Source: Candidatus Woesearchaeota archaeon
GTDB taxonomy: Archaea > Nanobdellota > Nanobdellia > Woesearchaeales > UBA12501
Assembly: GCA_014729495.1 (NCBI GenBank)
Contig: WJJV01000112.1
Span: 1-48,136, forward strand
Direction: 5' to 3'
DNA length: 48,136 nucleotides
In this document: piece after piece, positions 4,649 to 41,297 of the stretch
How the letters are laid out: every line of letters starts with the position of its first letter
Numbering within the stretch: position 1 is the first letter of the stretch
Made by a program: the position numbers and the translations under genes
Notes under the pieces: model-generated
Seen by the model: the letters and a program-made list of their open reading frames with translations, nothing else
What the model was told of the DNA's origin: nothing
Databases searched by the model: none

Positions 4649-7600
4649 ATGGGCAGTGATGATAGGATAGAACAGCTGATCAAAGAGCATGACAGGACTG
4701 ATGATGAATATGCTTCAGGAAAAGAGAGGATAAGCAGGCTGCAGTATGCTGTTATGTTTCTTGCACTGGCTTTTATGCTCTTTGGATTCTTCCTTATCAT
4801 AGAATACGGCGTGAGCCATACAGGGTATGCTGTGATAGAACAGAGCGGTAAAGTTGAGAGTGATGTTATAGAGGATCTTAAGGAAGGCGGAGAAGCAAGG
4901 GTGATCATAGTCCTTGAAGAGAATGAAGACAGCAGGAAGCAGGATTTCACTGGAATGAATCCTGAAGAGGTGGAAGATAAAATCAGGGAAAAGAAAGAGA
5001 AAGTCAAAGAAGCGCAGAAAGAGATAATAGATGATATCTCTGAGAGACCAGACAAGAAAGTAGGGATAAAACGCGCTTTTGAGCTTACAAATGCATTGAG
5101 CGCCAATGTGACAAAAGAAGGCATAGAAGAGCTGATAAAGAACAACAAGGTAAAAGAGATAATCAGGGACAGGCCAATAAGCATATCTCTCAGCGACACT
5201 ATCAGCATGATAAATGCTGATGATGTGCACCAGATGAGCATAAGCGGGACCAGCATTGAAGGACAGGGTATCAGTGTCTGTGTCATAGACACAGGGGTTG
5301 CTTACACACACTCAGCATTTGGCAGCTGCGCAAACACAACAGATATCAATGATGGATCATGCCAAAAAGTGGTTGGAGGATATGATTTCGTGAATGAAGA
5401 TTTCAATCCTCTGGATGATAATGGACATGGAACCCATGTTGCAGGAATAATCGCATCAGAGGATGCTGCTTACAAAGGGATAGCTCCCAAAGCAGGCATT
5501 GTGGCAATAAAGTCACTTGACAGCAATGGAAGCGGTTTTGAATCTGATGTGGCCAGCGGAATAGAGTGGTGCATCAGCAATTCCACGCTTCTGAACATAT
5601 CAGTGATAAGCATGAGCCTCGGAGAAGGCCAGTATACAGATGACAACTGCCCATCTACTTTTGATTCAGCGATAAACGCTGCCAATGCTCTTGGCATAAT
5701 GGTGGTTGCTGCTTCAGGAAACAACAATAATGATGATGCGATAAGCTCTCCTGCATGCTCTCCTAATGTCACATCTGTAGGGGCAGTTACAAAGACAGAC
5801 AGCATACCCAGCTTCTCGAACAGCCACCCTATCCTTGACCTTCTTGCTCCTGGAGTTTCTGTGGTATCAGCAGTGCCTCCTGAGAGCTACTGCACAGGAG
5901 ATCCAGGAGAGGCAAGCTGCAGTGACTCTCTATTCATGAGCCTGCAGGGAACATCCATGGCAACACCCCATGCAGCAGGAGCAGCTGCTCTGATATACCA
6001 GTATGAGAAGCTTCTGAGCAGCAGGAATGCCACCCCTTCAGGAATAGAGAGAATCCTCAAGAGGACAGGGATCAGCATAGATGACACCAGAAACAGCCTT
6101 TCTTTTCCAAGAATAGATGTGCTTAGTGCAGTCAATGCTGTCCTTCAGATCAATGAATCAGAGAACTCAGTGAATGATGCCCAGAATAATGCAAGAGTGG
6201 TCTTCAGGACAGGCACAGACCTGGAAAGGGCTTCAGAAGCATTTATCATAGAGGAAAATCTCATAAGCCTGAATTCATCTGCATACCCTGAATTCAACAA
6301 GCCAGCAGACCTTATCCTATACAATCTGGACTTTGCCAAGACACCGGTTGTACTGAAGGATGGAGTCGCGTGCGCAATCCCAGACTGCAATGTCACATCC
6401 TATGATGGAAACCTTAGCTTCTCTGTCGCAGGATTCTCAAACTATACCTCAGGAGCAAATGCCAAGCTGAGCATATTTGATGAAGTAGATAATGGGACTA
6501 CAAGATACACGCATGAGAACATAACATTCTATGCCAACTACACCAACATGACATCAGGAGATCCCATAAGCACAGCAGTCTGCAACATAACATTTGATGA
6601 CATGACAAACTCAACAATGACCTATGAATCCTCAACAGGATTCTATAATTACACCAGGGAATTCCTGACAGCAGACCTGTATCATTGGAATGTGAGCTGC
6701 GAAGACAGTGATGCAGAGCCGTTGAACACAACAGATGACATAACAGTCCTGCCTGGCTGCGGCCTGCCCCCTCCAGGCATTGACTGGAACATATCAGATG
6801 CTACTGTCAACTGCAACAATGAGAATCTTTATTTCCAGAATCAGAGCCTTATTGTCCAGGGCAATTCTACTTTGATACTGAACAACAGCCTGCTGACCCT
6901 CAATCAGTCCCCGTCTGATCAGAACATAACAATAATGAACAGCACAAAGCTGATAGCATATGATTCAAGAATACAAAGCCAGGCTGCCCCATACAACTTT
7001 GATATCATTGTGTACGGAAACTGCACTCTCTTCAATGTCACAGGAAACCAGTCACAGTATCACTTCAAGGCCAGTTCAAGCAGAATACAAAATTCTGCTT
7101 TTCAGGATTATATGTATTTTGAGGGCAATTCTGCAGTAGAGGTATATGATTCTGTATTCAATGGCAGGGTGTTCTCGCAGGAATCTGCAGTGCTAAAGAC
7201 AGATAACTCCACATACAATGATTATGTGTTCCTGATGGGATCATCAGACAACACCATAAGCAACTCAGCATTCAATAGCAGGCTGTATTTTGATGACGCC
7301 TCAGTCACAAATTTCACAACACCCGGCTCTTTAGTATCTGCGGCCTATTTCCAGGCAGCTTCACCAGCAATATACGGCCATGCAGATATGCCTGATACTG
7401 CTTCTTTCTATCAGGCCGGGACAATGACCACAAGACACTACCCAATCCAGATCAATTACACAAGCGGAAATCCTGTGAACCGCACGCAGGTAAATATCAC
7501 TAATTCTTCCAGCAGTGCCCTGATGTGGACAGGTTATACTGACGAGAACGGTCTTGCGGATGCTGTGCTTAAGTTCAGCTCAGATAACTACACTGAGAAT

Positions 7601-8509
7601 CTCACAGTATCTGTCAATCCTTCAGAGAACATAAGCCTGATGACAGACACACCAATGATCATGACTCTTCCTGATCCTGAATACTGCGGAGATGGCATAA
7701 AAAATGGTGCTGAGCAGTGCGATGGCTCTGACCTCGGAGGGGCATCATGCGCTGACTTCGGATTTGACACAGGGACACTTGGATGCACTGCTGCATGCAA
7801 TCACAATACAGCAGGATGCTCTGATAATGATGACAGTGGCTCAGGGAGCAGAGGAGGATTCAATTGCGAGATGGAGTGGGTGTGCTCTGAATGGAGCGGA
7901 TGCATTGACGGAAAGAGCACCAGGAACTGCACAGACATGAATAAGTGCACAGGCAGCTATGAGAAGATACAGGAGAAGACCTGCCATGAGATAGAAAAGC
8001 AGGATGAGGATGATGGCATCATGCCTGCATCAGACAGGGCAGGTGAACAACAGCACGCAAGCATGCCTGAAGAAGAGGCTGCACCAAGGACAGAAAATCC
8101 AGGAATCCCAGGATTCAGCTATCTCATCATTCTTCCGATAATCTTCCTGCCCCTGCTGCTTATAGGCCTGCCAAGAAGAGTGGTGTTCGCAGAAGAGGAA
8201 GTGCTCAAGCGCATGATAAGCAAGGGTCATCATAAGAGATACTCAAGGATACACGTGACTGAGGATGTACATCAAAGATACAGCACACACCCCAATATAA
8301 TGCCAAGAAAATTTGATCCAAAGAATCATGGCATCATAATATCCCTTCTAAAGACAGAGTATGGAATGGAGCATGAGCTTGCAGAGCTGACTGCCATTGC
8401 AAGCAGGCATCTTTTTGCCACAGTGCTGACAAACAAGGAAGTTCCTGATGAGCTCAAGCACAGGTTCAGAAGAATAAGGTTCCGGAACCCTGTTGCAAGG
8501 TCCAGATGA
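4649..8509 (+). CDS. Membrane-anchored S8 subtilisin-like serine protease with a long glycosylation-rich stalk, Cys-rich repeats, a C-terminal TM segment and a cytoplasmic tail
   Basis: The catalytic triad contexts are present: VIDTGV, HGTHVAGI, GTSMATPHAAG. There is an N-terminal TM segment plus an I9-like propeptide and dozens of N-x-S/T sequons. The Cys-rich CGDGIKNGAEQCDG... repeat is followed by the TM segment FSYLIILPIIFLPLLLIGL and a ~113-aa tail. Confidence 0.9.
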   Translation: MGSDDRIEQLIKEHDRTDDEYASGKERISRLQYAVMFLALAFMLFGFFLIIEYGVSHTGYAVIEQSGKVESDVIEDLKEGGEARVIIVLEENEDSRKQDFTGMNPEEVEDKIREKKEKVKEAQKEIIDDISERPDKKVGIKRAFELTNALSANVTKEGIEELIKNNKVKEIIRDRPISISLSDTISMINADDVHQMSISGTSIEGQGISVCVIDTGVAYTHSAFGSCANTTDINDGSCQKVVGGYDFVNEDFNPLDDNGHGTHVAGIIASEDAAYKGIAPKAGIVAIKSLDSNGSGFESDVASGIEWCISNSTLLNISVISMSLGEGQYTDDNCPSTFDSAINAANALGIMVVAASGNNNNDDAISSPACSPNVTSVGAVTKTDSIPSFSNSHPILDLLAPGVSVVSAVPPESYCTGDPGEASCSDSLFMSLQGTSMATPHAAGAAALIYQYEKLLSSRNATPSGIERILKRTGISIDDTRNSLSFPRIDVLSAVNAVLQINESENSVNDAQNNARVVFRTGTDLERASEAFIIEENLISLNSSAYPEFNKPADLILYNLDFAKTPVVLKDGVACAIPDCNVTSYDGNLSFSVAGFSNYTSGANAKLSIFDEVDNGTTRYTHENITFYANYTNMTSGDPISTAVCNITFDDMTNSTMTYESSTGFYNYTREFLTADLYHWNVSCEDSDAEPLNTTDDITVLPGCGLPPPGIDWNISDATVNCNNENLYFQNQSLIVQGNSTLILNNSLLTLNQSPSDQNITIMNSTKLIAYDSRIQSQAAPYNFDIIVYGNCTLFNVTGNQSQYHFKASSSRIQNSAFQDYMYFEGNSAVEVYDSVFNGRVFSQESAVLKTDNSTYNDYVFLMGSSDNTISNSAFNSRLYFDDASVTNFTTPGSLVSAAYFQAASPAIYGHADMPDTASFYQAGTMTTRHYPIQINYTSGNPVNRTQVNITNSSSSALMWTGYTDENGLADAVLKFSSDNYTENLTVSVNPSENISLMTDTPMIMTLPDPEYCGDGIKNGAEQCDGSDLGGASCADFGFDTGTLGCTAACNHNTAGCSDNDDSGSGSRGGFNCEMEWVCSEWSGCIDGKSTRNCTDMNKCTGSYEKIQEKTCHEIEKQDEDDGIMPASDRAGEQQHASMPEEEAAPRTENPGIPGFSYLIILPIIFLPLLLIGLPRRVVFAEEEVLKRMISKGHHKRYSRIHVTEDVHQRYSTHPNIMPRKFDPKNHGIIISLLKTEYGMEHELAELTAIASRHLFATVLTNKEVPDELKHRFRRIRFRNPVARSR

Positions 8510-8542: not shown

Positions 8543-9241
8543 TCACTTTATGCTGTGCACAACAAGGCCTTTGCTGGTTATCTCCAGAGGGTGGATGTCC
8601 TCATCATTCTTTGTCTTTCTCATCTTTCTCACAAGAAGGCTTCTTGAAAGGTCTCCGCCCATGGACTCATAGATGACATGGATTATTCCGTCGCAGATAA
8701 ACTCTGATATGCTGTCCTTTGAGAGGGACTTGTCATCTGCTGTATGGCTTATCAGCATTGAGGTCACATTGCTGCTCCTTTTGATGCTGTTCACGAAGCT
8801 GTAGATGAACCTGTTCATGGCAGTCTGAGGATTCTGGACAGTATAAGGAGAGTTTATGGCAAGCGTTGAGAGAGAGTCTATCACTACCCTGTTTATCCTT
8901 TCATCCTTGATCATCTTGATTATATCGTTCACTGTATTGTTGCTTATCTCTTCTGCAGGGATGCACAGGAACTTGACAATGCCTTTGGACACATGCTTCT
9001 TGACGTCCAGATTCAACTGCTCTGCCTGCTCTGTAATGCTTTCAGAAGACTCTTCAAATGAGATATAGAGCCCTTTTTCCCCGAACTTCTCTGCACCTCT
9101 GCTGATGAACTCAACGCCGAATATGGTCTTGCCTGTGCCAGGTGTTCCTGACATGAGAATGCAGCTGCCTTTTGGCAGTCCTCCTTCAACCAGATTATCA
9201 AATCCTCTGATTCCTGTCTTTATCCTTTCAATAACAACCAT
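8543..9241 (-). CDS. KaiC-like / RecA-superfamily single-domain ATPase
   Basis: IKTGIRGFDNLVEGGLPKGS, Walker A GTPGTGKT, Walker B RVVIDSL. The C-terminal SRSLLVRKMRKTKNDEDIHPLEITSKGL is near-identical to the paralog at 16023-16775. The ORF track starts at 9286, but a minus-strand TTTATTTATAT box about 25 nt upstream favours the ATG at 9241 (MVVIERIK). Confidence 0.8.
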   Translation of the reverse strand: MVVIERIKTGIRGFDNLVEGGLPKGSCILMSGTPGTGKTIFGVEFISRGAEKFGEKGLYISFEESSESITEQAEQLNLDVKKHVSKGIVKFLCIPAEEISNNTVNDIIKMIKDERINRVVIDSLSTLAINSPYTVQNPQTAMNRFIYSFVNSIKRSSNVTSMLISHTADDKSLSKDSISEFICDGIIHVIYESMGGDLSRSLLVRKMRKTKNDEDIHPLEITSKGLVVHSIK

Positions 9242-9351
9242 TACATAGACAATGTGCAGATATAAATAAAAGGTTTTCGGATTCATACCATCCCTAAACA
9301 GTTACTAAGATTATAAGAAAATGAAACAAATCCATCTATAGCAGAAAATGA

Positions 9352-19496: not shown

Positions 19497-20141
19497 TCAG
19501 TCTGTATATTTAAGTATTTCCCCCAGATTATTTGATTCAATCGCAACATCGCAGTGATTCTTGAGCTCATCAGATTTTGAGTTGAAAGCTATACTCAGGC
19601 CAACCTCTTCCATCATTGATATATCATTCTCATTGTCTCCCACAGCAGCGACATCCTTCAGCTCTATTCCTTTCTGCCTGCAGAAATCTGCGAGTATCTT
19701 TCCCTTGCTGTCCCAGAGTATATTCCATCTAAATCTGCCTGTTATCCTCTCATCTTCTATCTCCATCCAGTTCGCAAATACATGGTCAATGCCAAGCATC
19801 TTCTGAGCCTTTCTTGCAATGTCCTCTACAGCTGAGGTGATTATCATTGTCTCTATTCCTTTCTCTTTCAGATGTCTTATTGTCTCTTCAACACCTGGAT
19901 TGAGCTCAGAACCGCTTATTATATCCCAGTATCCTTCAGCGCTTCTGCCTGCCCACATCTTTCCTATCACAAGCTCGGCAAGCTTATGTGTGTCTGATCT
20001 GAGATATCTATCTTCAATCTCTCTTGTCTGCTCTCTTGTGCCATATTTATCATGCATCTGGGCATAGAAATTATTGTGTCTGAATATCACTCCATCAAGA
20101 TCAAATACCACTAGTCTGAAAGAATCAGTCCTTGCTGCCAT
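19497..20141 (-). CDS. HAD-superfamily phosphatase (SerB/HAD-IB-like), paralog of 17934-18620
   Basis: FDLDGVIF and GDNENDISMMEEVG. The start overlaps the aspS 3' end by 17 nt. Confidence 0.75.
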   Translation of the reverse strand: MAARTDSFRLVVFDLDGVIFRHNNFYAQMHDKYGTREQTREIEDRYLRSDTHKLAELVIGKMWAGRSAEGYWDIISGSELNPGVEETIRHLKEKGIETMIITSAVEDIARKAQKMLGIDHVFANWMEIEDERITGRFRWNILWDSKGKILADFCRQKGIELKDVAAVGDNENDISMMEEVGLSIAFNSKSDELKNHCDVAIESNNLGEILKYTD

Positions 20142-21912
20142 CTTCCTTTGCAGGCTTGAATGTTGATTTTATGTGAAGCTCCTTGAGCTGTGCCTCATCA
20201 ACATCACTGGGCGCTCCGTCAACAAGAGACTCTGCAGCCTTATTCTTTGGAAAAGCTATGACCTCCCTTATGTCGTCGGTCTTTGCCATCAATGCTATGA
20301 GCCTGTCAAATCCGAACGCTATGCCCCCATGAGGCGGAGCTCCGTACCTGAAAGCATCAAGAAGAAAACCGAATTTCTTCTCAGCCTCTGCTTTTGTTAT
20401 TCCAAGTGTCTTGAACATCTTCTGCTGGAGCTCTTCTCTGTGTATCCTGATTGATCCTCCGCCAAGCTCAACACCATTCAGAGTAAGATCATATGCTTTT
20501 GCCTTGACAGATGAGGGATCCTTGTCAAGCTTCTCTATATCCTCCTCCTTTGGAGAAGTGAATGGATGATGTACTGCGATGTGCCTCTGCATGTCCTCAT
20601 CATACTCAAGCAGAGGGAAGTCTGTCACCCATATGAAATTGTACTCATCCTTGCCTATCAGGCCTAGCTTCTCTCCAAGCTTCAGCCTCAGGTTTCCAAG
20701 GGCATCATCAACAATGAAATGCTTGTGGTCTGCCACAAAGAGCAGAAGATCCCCTTTCTCTGCTCCTGTCTTCTTGATTATCTCAGACTGGATATCATTG
20801 GAGAAGAACTTGACTATTGAACTCTCAAGCTTGCCTCCCTCCAGTACTTTTATCCATGCCAGGCCTTTTGCCTTGTATACACCTACAAAGTCAATAAGCT
20901 CATCTATCTCTTTTCTTGAGAACTCAGAGCAGGATTTTGCGTTTATGCATTTTACCTTGCCTCCTGAGCTTATTGCATCAGTGAATACCTTGAAATCAGA
21001 ATCCTTGACAATATCAGTGACATCCATCAGCTGCATGCCAAACCTCATGTCAGGCTTGTCTGAGCCGTACTTGTCCATTGCCTCATCATAGGTTATCCTT
21101 GGAAATGGTATATTTACATCAACATCTATTATACTGAATAATTTCTTCATCATCCTTTCCATTATCTGGTATATGTCCTCTTCATCAACAAAGCTTGCCT
21201 CTATGTCTATCTGGGTGAACTCTGGCTGCCTGTCTGCCCTGAGGTCCTCATCCCTGAAGCATCTCACTATCTGGAAATACCTGTCCATGCCTGACACCAT
21301 GAGCAGCTGCTTGTACAGCTGAGGTGACTGCGGAAGCGCGTAGAATCTTCCAGGATTGACCCTGCTCGGAACAAGATAATCACGGGCCCCTTCTGGTGTC
21401 GCCCTCACAAGCATTGGTGTCTCTATCTCAAGGAAATCTTCTGAAGAAAGATAGTTCCTTACAGCCTGGGCAACCTTATGCCTGAGCATGATCCTGCCCT
21501 GCATTGTCGGCCTCCTGAGGTCAAGGAACCTGTACTTCATCCTTACTTCTTCATTAGCCAGCTTTCTGTCATCAATATCCATTGGCGGAACTTCTGACTT
21601 GTTGAGTATGACCAATTCCTTTGAGCAGTACACCTCAATCTCTCCTGTATGAAGCTTCGGGTTCTCCATTCCAGTCGGCCTTGGCCTGACATTGCCTGTT
21701 ACCTGGATGCAGTCCTCTCTTCTCAGATGCTCTGCTTCCTCAAAACCCTTTGAAGCCGGATCAAGGGCTATTTGTGTAAGTCCGTGCCTGTCCCTGAGGT
21801 CTATGAATATGAGTCCTCCATGGTCTCTTCTTGTGTCTACCCATCCCTGAAGAGTGACCTGGCTCTTGTCATCCTTCTTTGTCAGTTCTCCGCAAGTATG
21901 GCTCCTTTTCAT
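20125..21912 (-). CDS. aspS: Aspartyl-tRNA synthetase, bacterial-type with a GAD insertion domain
   Basis: 595 aa with an N-terminal OB fold, class II motifs (FRDEDLRADRQPEFTQID, GGGSIRIH, GFDRL) and a ~130-aa GAD-like insertion. Confidence 0.92.
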   Translation of the reverse strand: MKRSHTCGELTKKDDKSQVTLQGWVDTRRDHGGLIFIDLRDRHGLTQIALDPASKGFEEAEHLRREDCIQVTGNVRPRPTGMENPKLHTGEIEVYCSKELVILNKSEVPPMDIDDRKLANEEVRMKYRFLDLRRPTMQGRIMLRHKVAQAVRNYLSSEDFLEIETPMLVRATPEGARDYLVPSRVNPGRFYALPQSPQLYKQLLMVSGMDRYFQIVRCFRDEDLRADRQPEFTQIDIEASFVDEEDIYQIMERMMKKLFSIIDVDVNIPFPRITYDEAMDKYGSDKPDMRFGMQLMDVTDIVKDSDFKVFTDAISSGGKVKCINAKSCSEFSRKEIDELIDFVGVYKAKGLAWIKVLEGGKLESSIVKFFSNDIQSEIIKKTGAEKGDLLLFVADHKHFIVDDALGNLRLKLGEKLGLIGKDEYNFIWVTDFPLLEYDEDMQRHIAVHHPFTSPKEEDIEKLDKDPSSVKAKAYDLTLNGVELGGGSIRIHREELQQKMFKTLGITKAEAEKKFGFLLDAFRYGAPPHGGIAFGFDRLIALMAKTDDIREVIAFPKNKAAESLVDGAPSDVDEAQLKELHIKSTFKPAKEDGSKD

Positions 21913-21933: not shown

Positions 21934-21946
21934 TATTTATAAAGAT
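21934..21946. promoter_or_regulatory. Near-palindromic TATA element (TATTTATAAAG), possibly bidirectional for aspS and the plus-strand structured RNA
   Basis: It lies about 25 nt from the aspS ATG (21912, minus) and about 25 nt from the first base of the long helix at 21961 (plus). Confidence 0.35.
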
Positions 21947-21960
21947 TTTGTGGGTTTGAG

Positions 21961-22436
21961 AGGGGTCTGTCCGGAATGAAGGTCATTGTCAAAATACTCA
22001 TTCCATTCGTATTTTTTCCCCTTTCAGCATTGCATGCTGAAAGCATCAATATGCGAAGCTCTATAATATATATTATTGAGGCTGTTGCAGGGGGAAGCCC
22101 CCTCCGAGGACGCAGGCCTTTAATATAAACAATCAAGAGCTGAGCCGATGCTGACCCGAACTTTTTACGCAGAAAAAAGAAGATTTCGGACAGACCCTTG
22201 GGTTGGAAGGCTTAACACTGGAATTATGCGAAGTTGCCTGAATGAGAGCCTGAAGGGCTTGAATTCAGCAATTTGGGCGAACAAGTGCAACGCAGTGAGC
22301 TGCATAATTCCTGTTATGTTCGTCGCCAGTTACGAGCGAACATCATGGATGTCATCAATTATTTCTGGTAACTGAAATAAGCATATGAGCGGAGTTCTGG
22401 CGACCGAAGCCTCAAAGAGGCGAAGAGTAATTTTTA
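21961..22436 (+). ncRNA. Candidate large structured non-coding RNA (unclassified)
   Basis: No credible ORF. There is a 17-bp long-range helix, 21961-21977 / 22183-22199, whose two G-U pairs are allowed only in the plus sense. Nested hairpins: 21991-22015, 22021-22043, 22090-22102, 22161-22179, 22220-22311 (11 bp enclosing 22234-22271 and 22246-22260), 22316-22343, 22359-22380, 22409-22421. It ends at a T5 run at 22431-22435. Confidence 0.35.
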
Positions 22437-22481
22437 GGGGTGCTCAGGGAGCGTTAGCGGTGCATCAAGTTAAAGGAGTTC

Positions 22482-22498
22482 GGGGCAAAAACAAAAAA
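22482..22498. repeat. Left inverted repeat GGGGCAAAAACAAAAAA
   Basis: Exact reverse complement of 24413-24429. It also serves as an oligo-T terminator on the minus strand for the Lrp-like gene. Confidence 0.85.
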
Positions 22499-22499
22499 C

Positions 22500-23468
22500 C
22501 TAGAATGGATAGTATGTCATCCTATGTTCTTTAATTACTTCTATAATCTCATAATCTTTAATTTCCAAAGCAAATTCTTCTCTTAGTTGTTTAATTAAAT
22601 TATCAAAATCTTTTTTTTCCAAAACTTCGATTTCTAATTCAACATCAAAATCACTAATTACTTTAATAAAAGTAAGAATATTTTTATTCATTTTTGATAT
22701 TGTTTTTATTTTGTTATATTTTTCTTTATCCATTCTTTGGAGTTTCAAAGATAATATATAGAAATTTCCTCCAATATTCTGGAAATTAATTTTTGTACTA
22801 AATCCTATGATAACATTTTTTTTCTGAAGGTTTTTTATCCTATAATTAATAGTATCTGGGCTGACATTTAATTCTTTTGAAATTTCAATTAAGGATTTTC
22901 TTGCATTTTTATTAAGTATAGAGAGTAATCTCTGGTCCGTTTTGTCTAACAATATCTCTTTTTCTTTTCCTCGGCTATAAATGAATTCTTCTGAATTTTT
23001 ATTTGGTAATAAATAAGCTTTAGAATAAGTATAAGCTTCTTCTAAAATAAAGATATTTCTTTCCAGAATGTAATCTTTCCATTTCCCAAATATCCTTTCG
23101 AATTTATTACTAAAATCATGAATATTTTTAACATAAATCGATGCCACTAAATCATATTTGCCTCTTAATGAAGATAACCAGAATACATTTTTTTCTTTAT
23201 TTAATTCTTTAATCATTTCTTGTTCTTTTTTGGGTGTAATATTGTATAATTTGATATAAATTTTAATATGCATAAATCCAAGTAGGGTTGGATTTAGTTT
23301 TACAAAGAAGTAATCAATCACATTTTTCTCCTGAAGATTGATTATTCTTGCAGCAACAGCTTGTTTTGATAAACCAACTTTTTTTGCTATTTTTTCATTA
23401 GTTTGCCTACTATTTTTATTTAGTTCATACAATATCTTTTTATCCTTTAGATCTGTTTTAATATACAT
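22500..23468 (-). CDS. Tandem (double) Lrp/AsnC-family transcriptional regulator
   Basis: 322 aa with two HTH_AsnC-like modules: KKILYELNKNSRQTNEKIAKKVGLSKQAVAARIINLQEKNVI and QRLLSILNKNARKSLIEISKELNVSPDTINYRIKNLQKKNVI. Each is followed by a RAM-like half. Strongly AT-rich codon usage. Paralog of 43877-44839. Confidence 0.75.
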   Translation of the reverse strand: MYIKTDLKDKKILYELNKNSRQTNEKIAKKVGLSKQAVAARIINLQEKNVIDYFFVKLNPTLLGFMHIKIYIKLYNITPKKEQEMIKELNKEKNVFWLSSLRGKYDLVASIYVKNIHDFSNKFERIFGKWKDYILERNIFILEEAYTYSKAYLLPNKNSEEFIYSRGKEKEILLDKTDQRLLSILNKNARKSLIEISKELNVSPDTINYRIKNLQKKNVIIGFSTKINFQNIGGNFYILSLKLQRMDKEKYNKIKTISKMNKNILTFIKVISDFDVELEIEVLEKKDFDNLIKQLREEFALEIKDYEIIEVIKEHRMTYYPF

Positions 23469-23588
23469 ATTAGAATAAAAACTGAAATAATATATAAATA
23501 TTACGGTTTTATTCTGAATCTATTAAGAAGGTTTTAAATAAATGTTCTTATTATTGAGTAATAAAAATAAATTAATTTTATCAAAAAA

Positions 23589-24410
23589 ATGGAAGATATA
23601 GAAATAATAAAAATAGGATATAAAAGTGAACAAATTAACTTGGGATTATTCCAAAGAGAGTGTAGTTTTTTAGATGATTACAAATTTGTTGATAAACTAA
23701 ACTCCAAATATGGAATAGATTTAAAAGTAATTAGGCCTCAAGTTGCTGAACTCTTAGTTAATGATCCACAGGGGGGTAAAGTTGCATCAGATTTTTCTCC
23801 TTTTATGACAAATGTAATAGTTGCCTACACTGGAAGAATGAACTTAAAAGAAACAGATAGGCAACTGAGATCTGAAATCTTTTATTCTGGGGGCGATAGA
23901 TCTTATATCTTACCTACGAAAGTACATGAGGGAAAGCAGGGTATTGCTATCGTAGTTCCAGATGTAACTGCAAGAGATTTTAATGAAGATAATGGAGAAG
24001 TTATACTGGATGTTCCTGAAGAAAGACTACTGGCGGTTGAAAACTTTCCTCCAACAAATGGTTGGTATCATCTTGATTCACTTACAACTATTCCAATAGA
24101 ACCTTGTGTTGCAGAATCTGTTGAAGCGAGATATTTAATAAGGGAACAAAAACCAACTTATCGTACAGGTTTATCATCCCAACTTGAGCCATTAATACCT
24201 TTTTCAGGTGAATATGTAGGTCCATTATATCGATGTGCACCATTAGTTGATGCAGAACGAGCAGGACAAGCTTTGGCACTGCAACCAACAACAACTAAAG
24301 GACTTATTCTTGAAATATCTGATAAGGATCTTAAAACTATGACTGGCGAAAAATCTAGTTTAGAGAGAATTGTTAATTTTTTTAGAAGTAAGAAAGAAGA
24401 CTTGACTTAA
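23589..24410 (+). CDS. Hypothetical protein (273 aa), no recognisable family
   Basis: A long ORF divergent from the Lrp-like gene across a 120-bp AT-rich promoter region. It is followed by the right inverted repeat / oligo-T. Confidence 0.55.
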   Translation: MEDIEIIKIGYKSEQINLGLFQRECSFLDDYKFVDKLNSKYGIDLKVIRPQVAELLVNDPQGGKVASDFSPFMTNVIVAYTGRMNLKETDRQLRSEIFYSGGDRSYILPTKVHEGKQGIAIVVPDVTARDFNEDNGEVILDVPEERLLAVENFPPTNGWYHLDSLTTIPIEPCVAESVEARYLIREQKPTYRTGLSSQLEPLIPFSGEYVGPLYRCAPLVDAERAGQALALQPTTTKGLILEISDKDLKTMTGEKSSLERIVNFFRSKKEDLT

Positions 24411-24412
24411 CC

Positions 24413-24429
24413 TTTTTTGTTTTTGCCCC
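24413..24429. repeat. Right inverted repeat TTTTTTGTTTTTGCCCC
   Basis: Exact reverse complement of 22482-22498. Confidence 0.85.
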
Positions 24430-24519
24430 TTATATTTTTCTAAGCCCTTAAAAATTATTGAACATAACACAGGTTTATGGCAGGTTCTTCAATACCAGCC
24501 CACATCATAAAAATGAGAA

Positions 24520-24726
24520 TCATCTCTTTCCTGATCTGCTTGCTCCGCCTGTCTTGTAAGGGCTGTATCTCTGCTTCTCTCTCTGGGTCTCTCTTTTCTC
24601 AGGGAATGTGTCAATATCCTCGCGCTCGTCATAACCGCAATTGCTGCACACAAGTGCCTTTGCTCCGCGGTAGTGGACCATCTGCACATCCGCTGATTTG
24701 CATTTAGGGCATTTTCTTGCTGTCAT
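24520..24726 (-). CDS. Small zinc-ribbon protein
   Basis: CPKCKS ... CSNCGY forms a four-Cys ribbon, followed by a basic tail. The ORF track extends to 24777, overlapping the SDR gene. The ATG at 24726 (MTARKCPKC) avoids the overlap. Confidence 0.5.
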   Translation of the reverse strand: MTARKCPKCKSADVQMVHYRGAKALVCSNCGYDEREDIDTFPEKRETQREKQRYSPYKTGGASRSGKR

Positions 24727-24751
24727 CAAAAGCTCCACTGGGTTTGCAGCC

Positions 24752-41195: not shown

Positions 41196-41297
41196 TGGGA
41201 CAGCCGGGATTTGAACCCGGAACACCTAGATTTCTTATGCCTGGCATTGCCTGGAGAATCTTCAGTCTAGTGCTCTCCCAGGTTGAGCTACTGTCCC
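41196..41297 (-). tRNA. tRNA-Phe: tRNA-Phe (GAA) with a ~28-nt intron at the canonical 37/38 position; no encoded CCA
   Basis: Manual cloverleaf, in order: acceptor GGGACAG/CTGTCCC; D arm GCTC-AACCTGGGA-GAGC; anticodon stem CTAGA/TCTAG with loop CTGAAGA interrupted by ATTCTCCAGGCAATGCCAGGCATAAGAA; T arm CCGGG-TTCAAAT-CCCGG; discriminator A. Confidence 0.9.

Follow-up and report, generated by a model that had tools for sequence, protein, structure and literature searches.

A miniature transposon and a probable split, integron-like cassette recombination site, with a XerA paralog as candidate recombinase, upstream of aspS in a Woesearchaeota genome

The DNA analyzed here is a 48,136-nt stretch (hereafter, the window; contig WJJV01000112.1, positions 1 to 48,136) from a 1.35-Mb metagenome-assembled genome (MAG) of Candidatus Woesearchaeota archaeon (GCA_014729495.1), a fragmented assembly of 134 contigs that is 91% complete. 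A sequence-only reading of this stretch, made by a model without database searches, had proposed that about 480 nucleotides adjacent to aspS (21950-22436) form one large structured RNA. The helices on which the proposal was based are real, but the single RNA does not hold up. Instead, the interval probably consists of two unrelated, adjacent pieces of mobile DNA, namely, a miniature inverted-repeat transposable element (MITE) and a folded, integron-like cassette recombination site. By analogy with integrons, 22213-22498 is likely to be the 3' part of such a site, split by the entry of a circular cassette, with a dedicated paralog of the archaeal recombinase XerA as the candidate enzyme. Genomes, contigs and loci are denoted below by G, C and L numbers, with G000 being the genome of the window and G001 its nearest relative, from the same genus.

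All features listed in the sequence-only reading, namely, a 17-bp pairing, a nested helical domain, a pair of alternative pairings, a TATA element and a T5 run, are present in the sequence at the positions given below, and the open reading frames (ORFs) dismissed there as implausible are indeed short and overlap the elements described here. A covariance scan against Rfam identified no family in the interval, either at the gathering threshold or at E <= 10, and searches of the window and four relatives at permissive thresholds yielded only noise (sR58, E = 8; Clostridiales-1, E = 0.33). The interval folds better than shuffled sequences (z = -3.7), but the minus strand folds equally well (z = -3.9), so that folding energy alone gives no strand preference. 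The interval has two parts: 22213-22498 is a conserved, covarying element, and 21962-22198 is a repeat.

When the genome was searched with 21940-22500, only 21962-22198 was found to be repeated. Seven further copies were identified, bringing the total to eight, of which three are full, three internally deleted and two diverged. The full copies on C39 and C36 are 95-96% identical to that of the window, those on C16 and C65 share one internal deletion, with the identity across these four contigs ranging from 92 to 96%, and shorter or diverged copies are located on C16, C130 and C84. In the alignment, all copies begin with GGGTCTGTCCGGAAT and finish with its reverse complement, with GGGTCTGTCCGGAAT and ATTTCGGACAGACCC representing the terminal inverted repeats (TIRs), which in the window copy extend to 21961-21977 and 22183-22199 (15-17 bp). 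This is the 17-bp pairing of AGGGGTCTGTCCGGAAT (21961-21977) with ATTTCGGACAGACCCTT (22183-22199), the 15-bp core of which was recovered by the repeat search. The pairing is thus present, but its interpretation as an RNA helix fails: it is the imperfect TIR of the repeat, and the two G-T positions correspond to two transition differences between the TIR arms. Perfect 9-bp target-site duplications (TSDs) flank the copies at C65 (GCATTCTGG) and C16b (GTTTGCAGC), eight of the nine positions match at C39, and a probable, degenerate TSD flanks the window copy (GGGTTTGAG at 21952-21960 and GGGTTGGAA at 22200-22208; 7/9 identical). Positions 21963-22197, as delineated by the multi-copy alignment, TIRs and TSDs, are a MITE, a noncoding transposon of about 235 bp with only short, spurious ORFs. 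No pair of MITE ends around a transposase-sized segment, as expected of an autonomous insertion sequence (IS), was found in the assembly, the incompleteness and fragmentation of which leave that absence unproven; as far as this assembly goes, the MITE is therefore non-autonomous. Relatives from the same genus and family have weaker matches to it.

The location of the MITE copies is unusually uniform. All eight are separated by 11-20 bp, in most cases 15-16, from a T[TA]TATAAA box (window 21936-21962; C39:3180-3204; C36:~120-142 and 376-400; C16:4833-4856, 5033-5053 and 7790-7812; C65:925-949; also C130 and C84), whereas the chance of finding such a box at that distance from a random non-ORF position is P = 0.023. 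Where the gene is visible, the MITE is on the upstream side of the promoter, that of the transcription factor B recognition element (BRE), and sometimes between two back-to-back TATA boxes. For the window copy, the insertion point is ~19 bp from the TATA box of aspS, on its upstream side and thus facing away from aspS itself. This placement suggests promoter-proximal targeting or, otherwise, that such a position is the sole spot tolerated in very short divergent promoter regions.

The second half of the interval has a different origin. By BLAST, 22199-22500 is unique in the genome, with short stretches matching relatives. It contains, on the plus strand, the sequence TAACAC (22213-22218), of which a direct repeat lies at 24465-24470. 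The left copy, at the cassette junction, contains the 5' R box and the putative crossover point; upstream of it are 14 unrelated bases, followed by the MITE. TAACAC opens a hairpin, P1 (22213-22316, plus strand), that comprises the R box TAACA, a 2-nt bulge CT, the L arm GGAATTATGCG (22220-22230), a variable inner domain, the L' arm TGCATAATTCC (22301-22311) and the R' box TGTTA (22312-22316). The nested domain noted previously at 22220-22311 belongs here and was confirmed by both repeat search and folding. P1 is followed on the same strand by P2 (22322-22404), an 8-bp helix of GTCGCCAG (22322-22329) with CTGGCGAC (22397-22404) that encloses the conserved loops TTACGA (22330-22335) and GGAGTT (22391-22396) together with a lineage-specific insert. 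Two competing pairings had been described for 22319-22329, and covariation identifies the long-range partner as the conserved one. Next comes the hairpin GCCTC-AAA-GAGGC (22409-22421), which is equivalent, judging by the covariation of helix 3, to P3, in most relatives a 4-bp stem with a GTCC loop directly after P2. The remainder is the tail of the site (22425-22498), in which two blocks pair with distal sequences, TAATTTTTAGGGG (22428-22440) with 24445-24457 and GGGGCAAAAACAAAAAA (22482-22498) with 24413-24429. The T5 run at 22431-22435 is part of the former block and is not evidently a terminator.

These distal partners form the lead (24413-24470, plus strand), which consists of TTTTTTGTTTTTGCCCC (24413-24429), CCCTTAAAAATTA (24445-24457) and TTGAACATAACAC and ends with the right-hand TAACAC. 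Its three blocks are, colinearly, the complements of 22482-22498, 22428-22440 and 22312-22322. The left site lacks the block ATTGAACATAACA, which is typical of leads in the family described below. Joined to 22219-22505, the lead gives a sequence whose predicted fold is a single closed hairpin that includes P0, the R and L helices, P2 and P3 (-69.4 kcal/mol, z = -6.2 with DNA parameters; z ~ -7 with RNA parameters), compared with z = -3.7 for the unjoined interval. From its sequence, 22213-22498 reads as the larger part of an attC-like site whose 5' part lies beyond the cassette, at 24413-24470, and the 17-bp inverted repeat around the cassette is read as the outer stem of this split site. The cargo (22500-24410), delineated by composition, Pfam matches and homology search, consists of two genes, a tandem Lrp/AsnC regulator (22500-23468, minus strand; Pfam) and a 273-aa ORFan (23589-24410, plus strand), with a GC content of 23-30% against ~44% for the window. 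The ORFan protein has no homolog among 5.8 billion proteins and, hence, is of no use as a tracer of mobility.

The following scenario would account for this arrangement. A 2.25-kb gene cassette (22219-24470) would have entered as a circle, by recombination between the TAACAC in the 5' R box of the cassette site and a chromosomal TAACAC. On integration, the site would have been divided, with P1, P2, P3 and the tail staying together on the left, the much shorter lead ending up on the right and the cargo lying in between. By analogy with the attC sites of integrons, we infer that, as single-stranded DNA, the plus strand adopts a hairpin in which TAACA and TGTTA pair as the R duplex and a 2-nt bulge separates it from the 11-bp L duplex, and that a tyrosine recombinase binds and cuts this hairpin, the exact position of the cut being placed within TAACAC only provisionally. 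The predicted empty site before insertion is GGAAGGCTTAACAC joined to AGGTTTATGGCAGG, and in the predicted junction of the excised circle, GAACATAACAC (or TTGAACATAACAC, at the lead end) is joined to TGGAATTATGCG.

The site belongs to a family. A scan of 185,579 species with a pattern derived from five copies retrieved ~25 MAGs of Woesearchaeota and Nanoarchaeota along with a few chance bacterial matches. The common plan, on the plus strand, is a lead with ATTG-N4, TAACA, a 2-nt bulge, an 11-bp arm, a variable domain, the complementary arm, TGTTA, P2 (8 bp, with TTACGA and GGAGTT loops), P3 (4 bp with a tetraloop) and a tail. Covariance models A1 and R1, built on the TGTTA-P2-P3 portion, yielded 86 matches in the loci examined, of which 76 are distinct. 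R1, which scores 54.8 bits at the P2 of the window, has matches in 139 of 401 genomes from the order, the best E values reaching 1e-22 and the copy number not exceeding 11 per genome; the window's genome has three. Many of these matches are close to a contig end, at a distance of a few hundred bases at most, and many occur in same-strand series spaced 0.7-3 kb apart. Across the 76 distinct copies, P2 and P3 show pronounced covariation: 96% of the cells are paired, and all 14 pairs have changes on both sides, including eight of eight in P2 and four of four in P3, with none of 500 shuffles performing as well and no slid control coming close. P1 was traced in 28 copies from other genomes, all with the TAACA-NN-11 bp...11 bp-TGTTA architecture but with different, compensating L arms. 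The 5' box is TAACA in 24 of the 28, the ATTG-N4-TAACA lead is conserved across the family, and the span from R'' to R' is 104 nt in the window and 84-192 nt in the 28 copies (281 in one of them). The wobble pairs of P1 are asymmetric, with 14 G·T against a single A·C, the G always being on the 5' arm, where the bulge (TC or CT) is also invariably found.

The arrays show what is inherited together. L097 contains at least five units, and L098-L104 are similar, whereas the window has a single cassette. The cassettes of L097 encode a CopG-like protein with a small unannotated ORF, a MazE-ParE (toxin-antitoxin) pair and, on the opposite strand, a methyltransferase; there are also several ORFs without Pfam matches and some near-empty spacers. 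Cargo blocks are bracketed by inverted repeats, for example, GGGGCAAAAACAAAAC...GTTTTGTTTTTGCCCC, and further in, TCAGAAATTAGCG...CGCTAATTTCTGA. At every L097 junction that was read by hand, the partner of a unit's tail is the lead of the following unit rather than its own, and neighboring units can differ in subtype. Thus, the co-inherited unit runs from after one TAACA, through the cargo, to the next TAACA, and is a cassette whose site splits on insertion. One unit of L097 (~9240-9340) has P1 without P2 and P3, which makes P1 the common core; we suspect that P2 and P3 are a recognition site or a binding site for an accessory protein. A second copy of the site in the window's genome, at the start of a contig (C123:1-360; L107), is followed by a 'cassette' of ~170 nt that has no ORF and is bracketed by TTTTGATTTTTTCC and GGAAAAAATCAAAA, and then by a P1-only site; near-empty cassettes occur in L097 as well. 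A loose hairpin scan of the genome for additional P1 sites performed no better than the shuffled background.

We then sought a recombinase among the neighbors of the sites. The integron integrase IntI (TIGR02249) scored above the cutoff in none of the 401 genomes, and a first pass around the sites revealed no conserved neighbor gene. Wider clustering of all ORFs in the element loci gave a sole recurrent family, a XerA-type tyrosine recombinase of 260-280 aa, in six distinct loci, three of which were read in detail; in all six, the gene lies downstream of the site on the same strand. These array-linked proteins match NF040815 (archaeal XerA) with 214-233 bits, their closest solved structure is XerA of P. 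abyssi, and they align with IntI4 in two stretches only, skipping the IntI insertion. The arrays of L038, L044 and L102 end in a lead and a TAAC(A) box upstream of the Xer gene, 60-90 nt from its ATG in L038 and L044 and ~230 nt in L102, and in L038 and L044 this last lead pairs with the preceding tail. The window's genome has one such gene, on C102, with the site GTATAACAC-CTATTAAGCG...CGTTTAATAG. Among related genes with available upstream sequence, 28 of 29 are preceded by ATTG-N4-TAACA-N and a hairpin with the consensus TATTAAGCG-N9-11-CGCTTAATA, and 13 contigs terminate within 100-320 nt on the upstream side, which is expected beside repeats.

In the phylogenetic tree, this paralog forms a clade separated from housekeeping XerA with 99/97 support, and five genomes have one gene of each kind. 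In at least four of six loci, the housekeeping genes have a classical dif site, CGCGTATAA-GGTACA-TTATACGCG, upstream, and a dif-like palindrome was identified within ~100 nt upstream of the housekeeping-type xerA in L157-L160 (G157:C46, G161:C12, G034:C5 and G033:C3), an arrangement resembling the gene-plus-site modules of streptococcal xerS/difSL. No housekeeping-type Xer gene was found in the assembly of the window's genome, where the C102 paralog is the sole representative. R1 matches are present in 17 of the 22 genomes that carry a close paralog, compared with 139 of 401 overall. The candidate recombinase of Woesearchaeales is then the dedicated XerA paralog and probably not IntI, and the site upstream of its gene, ATTG-N4-TAACA with the hairpin TATTAAGCG...CGCTTAATA, would act in an attI-like manner, as the place where some arrays end.

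Several observations weigh against the combination of a folded cassette site and a dedicated paralog. R1 matches are within 1.5 kb of a paralog gene in just two of 30 loci, and many arrays are on contigs other than that of the gene, so that the enzyme is assigned by association. The array-adjacent Xer genes of L102 and L055 form long branches within the housekeeping clade. Automated scoring of tail/lead complementarity was noisy, with 5' boxes often misplaced and some sites undetected. At the window locus, no empty site, circular junction or read-level polymorphism was found, the sole sequencing run identified containing unrelated fragments and not this organism; the region upstream of aspS is variable among relatives, and G001 has another insert there rather than an empty site. 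The structure itself departs from classical attC, where the R''-L'' arm carries the extrahelical bases, R' contains the crossover and the central spacer is unpaired (Bouvier 2009, PMC2727003): here, there is a 2-nt bulge in place of a two-sided unpaired central spacer, and this bulge is on the same arm as the putative TAACAC crossover. Finally, the wobble counts of P2 and P3 are balanced (22 G·U, or G·T, against 21 A·C), so that the argument for strand-specific folding, the plus strand being favored by 14 to 1 in P1, comes from P1.

The same counts bear on the explanation closest to the original proposal, that the plus strand of 22205-22498 encodes a true structured noncoding RNA, a cassette-borne regulatory or stabilizing RNA or an untranslated-region element cotranscribed with the cassette genes, the arrays then resulting from its spread with the cassettes. 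The strong covariation of P2 and P3, the confinement of G·T wobbles in P1 to the plus strand, and the conservation of the P2 loop and P3 sequences across the order, which is unusual for attC sites, are all compatible with such an RNA, which would be new given the lack of an Rfam match. Yet P2 and P3 lack the G·U excess expected of RNA, no conserved promoter precedes a defined 5' end at constant spacing (the lead of an arrayed site comes immediately after the preceding cassette), some sites keep P1 without P2 and P3, and the tail and its lead partners bracket the cargo like the halves of a recombination site. Furthermore, the site in the window is split around 1.9 kb of genes and therefore cannot be transcribed as one folded RNA. 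Taken together, the multiple copies, their arraying between cassettes, the splitting with a direct TAACAC repeat and the lack of a G·U excess are better explained by a recombination site in folded DNA than by an RNA gene. The original RNA proposal is partly supported, in that the second half is conserved and covarying, with the G·T pairs of P1 on the plus strand, but its first 235 bp are a multi-copy MITE, and we consider an RNA encoded by the second half unlikely. Particular RNA identities fared no better. A housekeeping single-copy RNA was dropped because the element is multi-copy and arrayed. The sequence-only reading had found no match to RNase P or signal recognition particle (SRP) RNA, and this stands: the archaeal forms have a similar size range and helix-rich appearance, but the interval has no match to them, and both true genes are on other contigs (RF00373, C10:9778-10125, 121 bits; RF01857, C88:7207-7480, 148 bits; both above the gathering score). 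The omega-RNA of TnpB, H/ACA and C/D RNAs, and K-turn and sarcin-ricin motifs, all considered by eye on the basis of the P2 loops, were likewise rejected, there being no TnpB, the neighbor being an Lrp regulator and the motifs unfit.

A different possibility is that the cassettes resemble integrative mobile elements exploiting Xer (IMEX) or dif modules and are moved by the housekeeping XerA through double-strand, dif-like recombination, with neither a dedicated integrase nor single-strand folding. The neighboring recombinases do belong to the XerA family by NCBIfam and Protein Data Bank matches, two array-adjacent Xer genes cluster with the housekeeping clade, and the cassettes are bracketed by inverted repeats like pdif modules. 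The housekeeping clade, however, has the classical 9-6-9 dif upstream, unlike the TAACA-plus-hairpin of the paralog, and five genomes carry both genes. Moreover, the stems vary freely while pairing is kept, which suggests recognition of structure rather than of a fixed double-strand sequence, and P1 is strand-biased, so that we assign this possibility a low probability. As for ordinary hairpin-rich spacer DNA with chance or low-complexity similarities, the equal folding of both strands shows that the energy signal alone is unspecific, but the R1 matches in 139 genomes, the covariation that surpassed 500 of 500 shuffles and all slid controls, and the MITE copies of 92-96% identity with TSDs already refute it, and its probability is negligible. 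The folded cassette site hence remains our preferred interpretation of 22213-22498.

On the other side of the MITE, the near-palindrome TATTTATAAAG (21934-21944), taken in the sequence-only reading for a shared TATA element driving the large RNA, is present, but its role is that of the aspS promoter. The TATA box, TTTATAAA (21936-21943, minus strand), read from the sequence, is 23 nt from the aspS ATG (21912), a distance suggesting that the aspS mRNA is probably leaderless. The MITE now separates this box from the second element, and accordingly, the box cannot be a promoter shared with it. The aspS gene (20125-21912, minus strand) encodes a 595-aa aspartyl-tRNA synthetase of bacterial type, with a GAD insertion, in an archaeal genome. 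Beyond the cassette, between it and a short-chain dehydrogenase/reductase (SDR) gene, is a zinc-ribbon ORF of 68 aa (CPKC...CSNC; 24520-24727, minus strand) that is conserved in G001; a listed 66-aa ORF (24489-24689) is in another frame and looks spurious. In G001 (C3; L112), the spacer between aspS and the zinc-ribbon gene contains, at the same place, a different insert of ~0.75 kb, which ends in the lead-like ...TTCCATAACA beside the same chromosomal flank, with AACATGGCTT repeated on both sides. This spacer may be a recurrent insertion spot. Elsewhere in the window, the sole Rfam match is a tRNA gene of 102 nt (41196-41297, minus strand), long enough to contain an intron.

The most immediate consequence of this analysis is the removal of a false lead, as a new large RNA at 21950-22436 is unlikely. 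More broadly, the results suggest a cassette system that is common in these DPANN archaea: arrays of cassettes sharing a folded recombination site are present in roughly one third, or more, of the Woesearchaeales genomes sampled, and the recombinase linked to them appears to be a dedicated XerA paralog and not IntI. A more general hypothesis, which in our estimation has an even chance of being correct, is that Woesearchaeales harbor a widespread analog of integrons with an origin separate from that of IntI integrons, in which a XerA paralog without the IntI insertion captures cassettes with folded 250-400-nt sites (attC-like P1 and the P2/P3 module) at a TAACA-hairpin primary site beside its own gene, and the cassette of the window sits at a secondary TAACAC beside the aspS promoter. 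If so, Xer recombinases would have given rise to platforms for cassette capture on more than one occasion, a mechanism would be at hand for the variable, ORFan-rich regions of the tiny Woesearchaeales genomes, and current integron finders, which combine an attC model with IntI, would probably miss such systems. The strict position of the MITE ~15 bp upstream of TATA boxes, in turn, suggests promoter-targeted insertion in archaea.

Among known elements, the MITE is readily compared with archaeal counterparts such as SM1-SM4 of Sulfolobus and the MITEs of Methanocaldococcus and haloarchaea. It resembles archaeal MITEs in its length of ~235 bp, lack of coding capacity, TIRs, 9-bp TSD, multiple copies and internally deleted derivatives, and differs in the absence of a same-ended parent IS from the assembly and in the TATA-proximal location of all copies.

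The cassette site is closest to the integron system. Integrons and clusters of attC sites lacking integron integrases (CALINs) have been described in archaea, including six Woesearchaeales MAGs, with archaeal IntIs that possess the IntI-specific domain (Ghaly et al. 2022, PMC9668308); the supplement of that study contains none of the present site sequences, and our literature search found no paper describing cassette arrays with Xer paralogs in DPANN archaea. As in integrons, small ORFan or toxin-antitoxin cassettes form same-orientation arrays with imperfect-palindrome sites between them, solitary cassettes are found at secondary sites, and one end of some arrays is occupied by the gene for a tyrosine recombinase, here the XerA paralog, together with an attI-like site. 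The rejoined outer boxes of the window site, ACATAAC and GTTATGT, each match RYYYAAC/GTTRRRY in 6 of 7 positions, and the minus strand at the left TAACAC reads GTGTTAAGC, with the junction GTTAAGC matching the integron core GTTRRRY; in the family, TAACA/TGTTA is nearly invariant, and many members match the core fully (e.g., GTTAAAC and GTTAAGT). The inner L helix (11 bp, with compensating changes), variable terminal structure, one-sided bulge, putative crossover in the AAC box and a P1 length of 104 nt, within the ~57-141 nt used as the criterion for attC, are further shared traits. Strand-specific folding, as known for attC, is favored by the wobble pairs of P1 and not by those of P2 and P3. 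Conversely, no IntI with the IntI-specific insertion was found in the 401 genomes, the linked enzyme being a XerA paralog of 260-280 aa; the sites are far larger than attC, at 250-400 nt including lead and tail; they carry the sequence-conserved P2/P3 module; and the cargo genes have their own promoters and either orientation. Considering both sets of features, we class the element by function, as one behaving like an integron cassette site, without assigning it to the IntI/attC family in the strict sense.

Elements that exploit Xer are the other natural point of reference. In IMEX of the CTX-phi type, XerCD use a folded single-stranded attP, and in the pdif modules of Acinetobacter, genes, often toxin-antitoxin, are bracketed by inverted sites. 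The present system shares with them a Xer-family recombinase acting, in our interpretation, on mobile DNA, the putative hairpin substrate resembling the folded single strand of CTX-phi and the gene modules between inverted sites resembling those of pdif. It is distinguished by a site that is not the chromosomal dif, given that the dif upstream of the housekeeping xerA (CGCGTATAA-GGTACA-TTATACGCG) is different, by a dedicated paralog with a site of its own, and by arrays that are organized like those of integrons and not like phage integrations.

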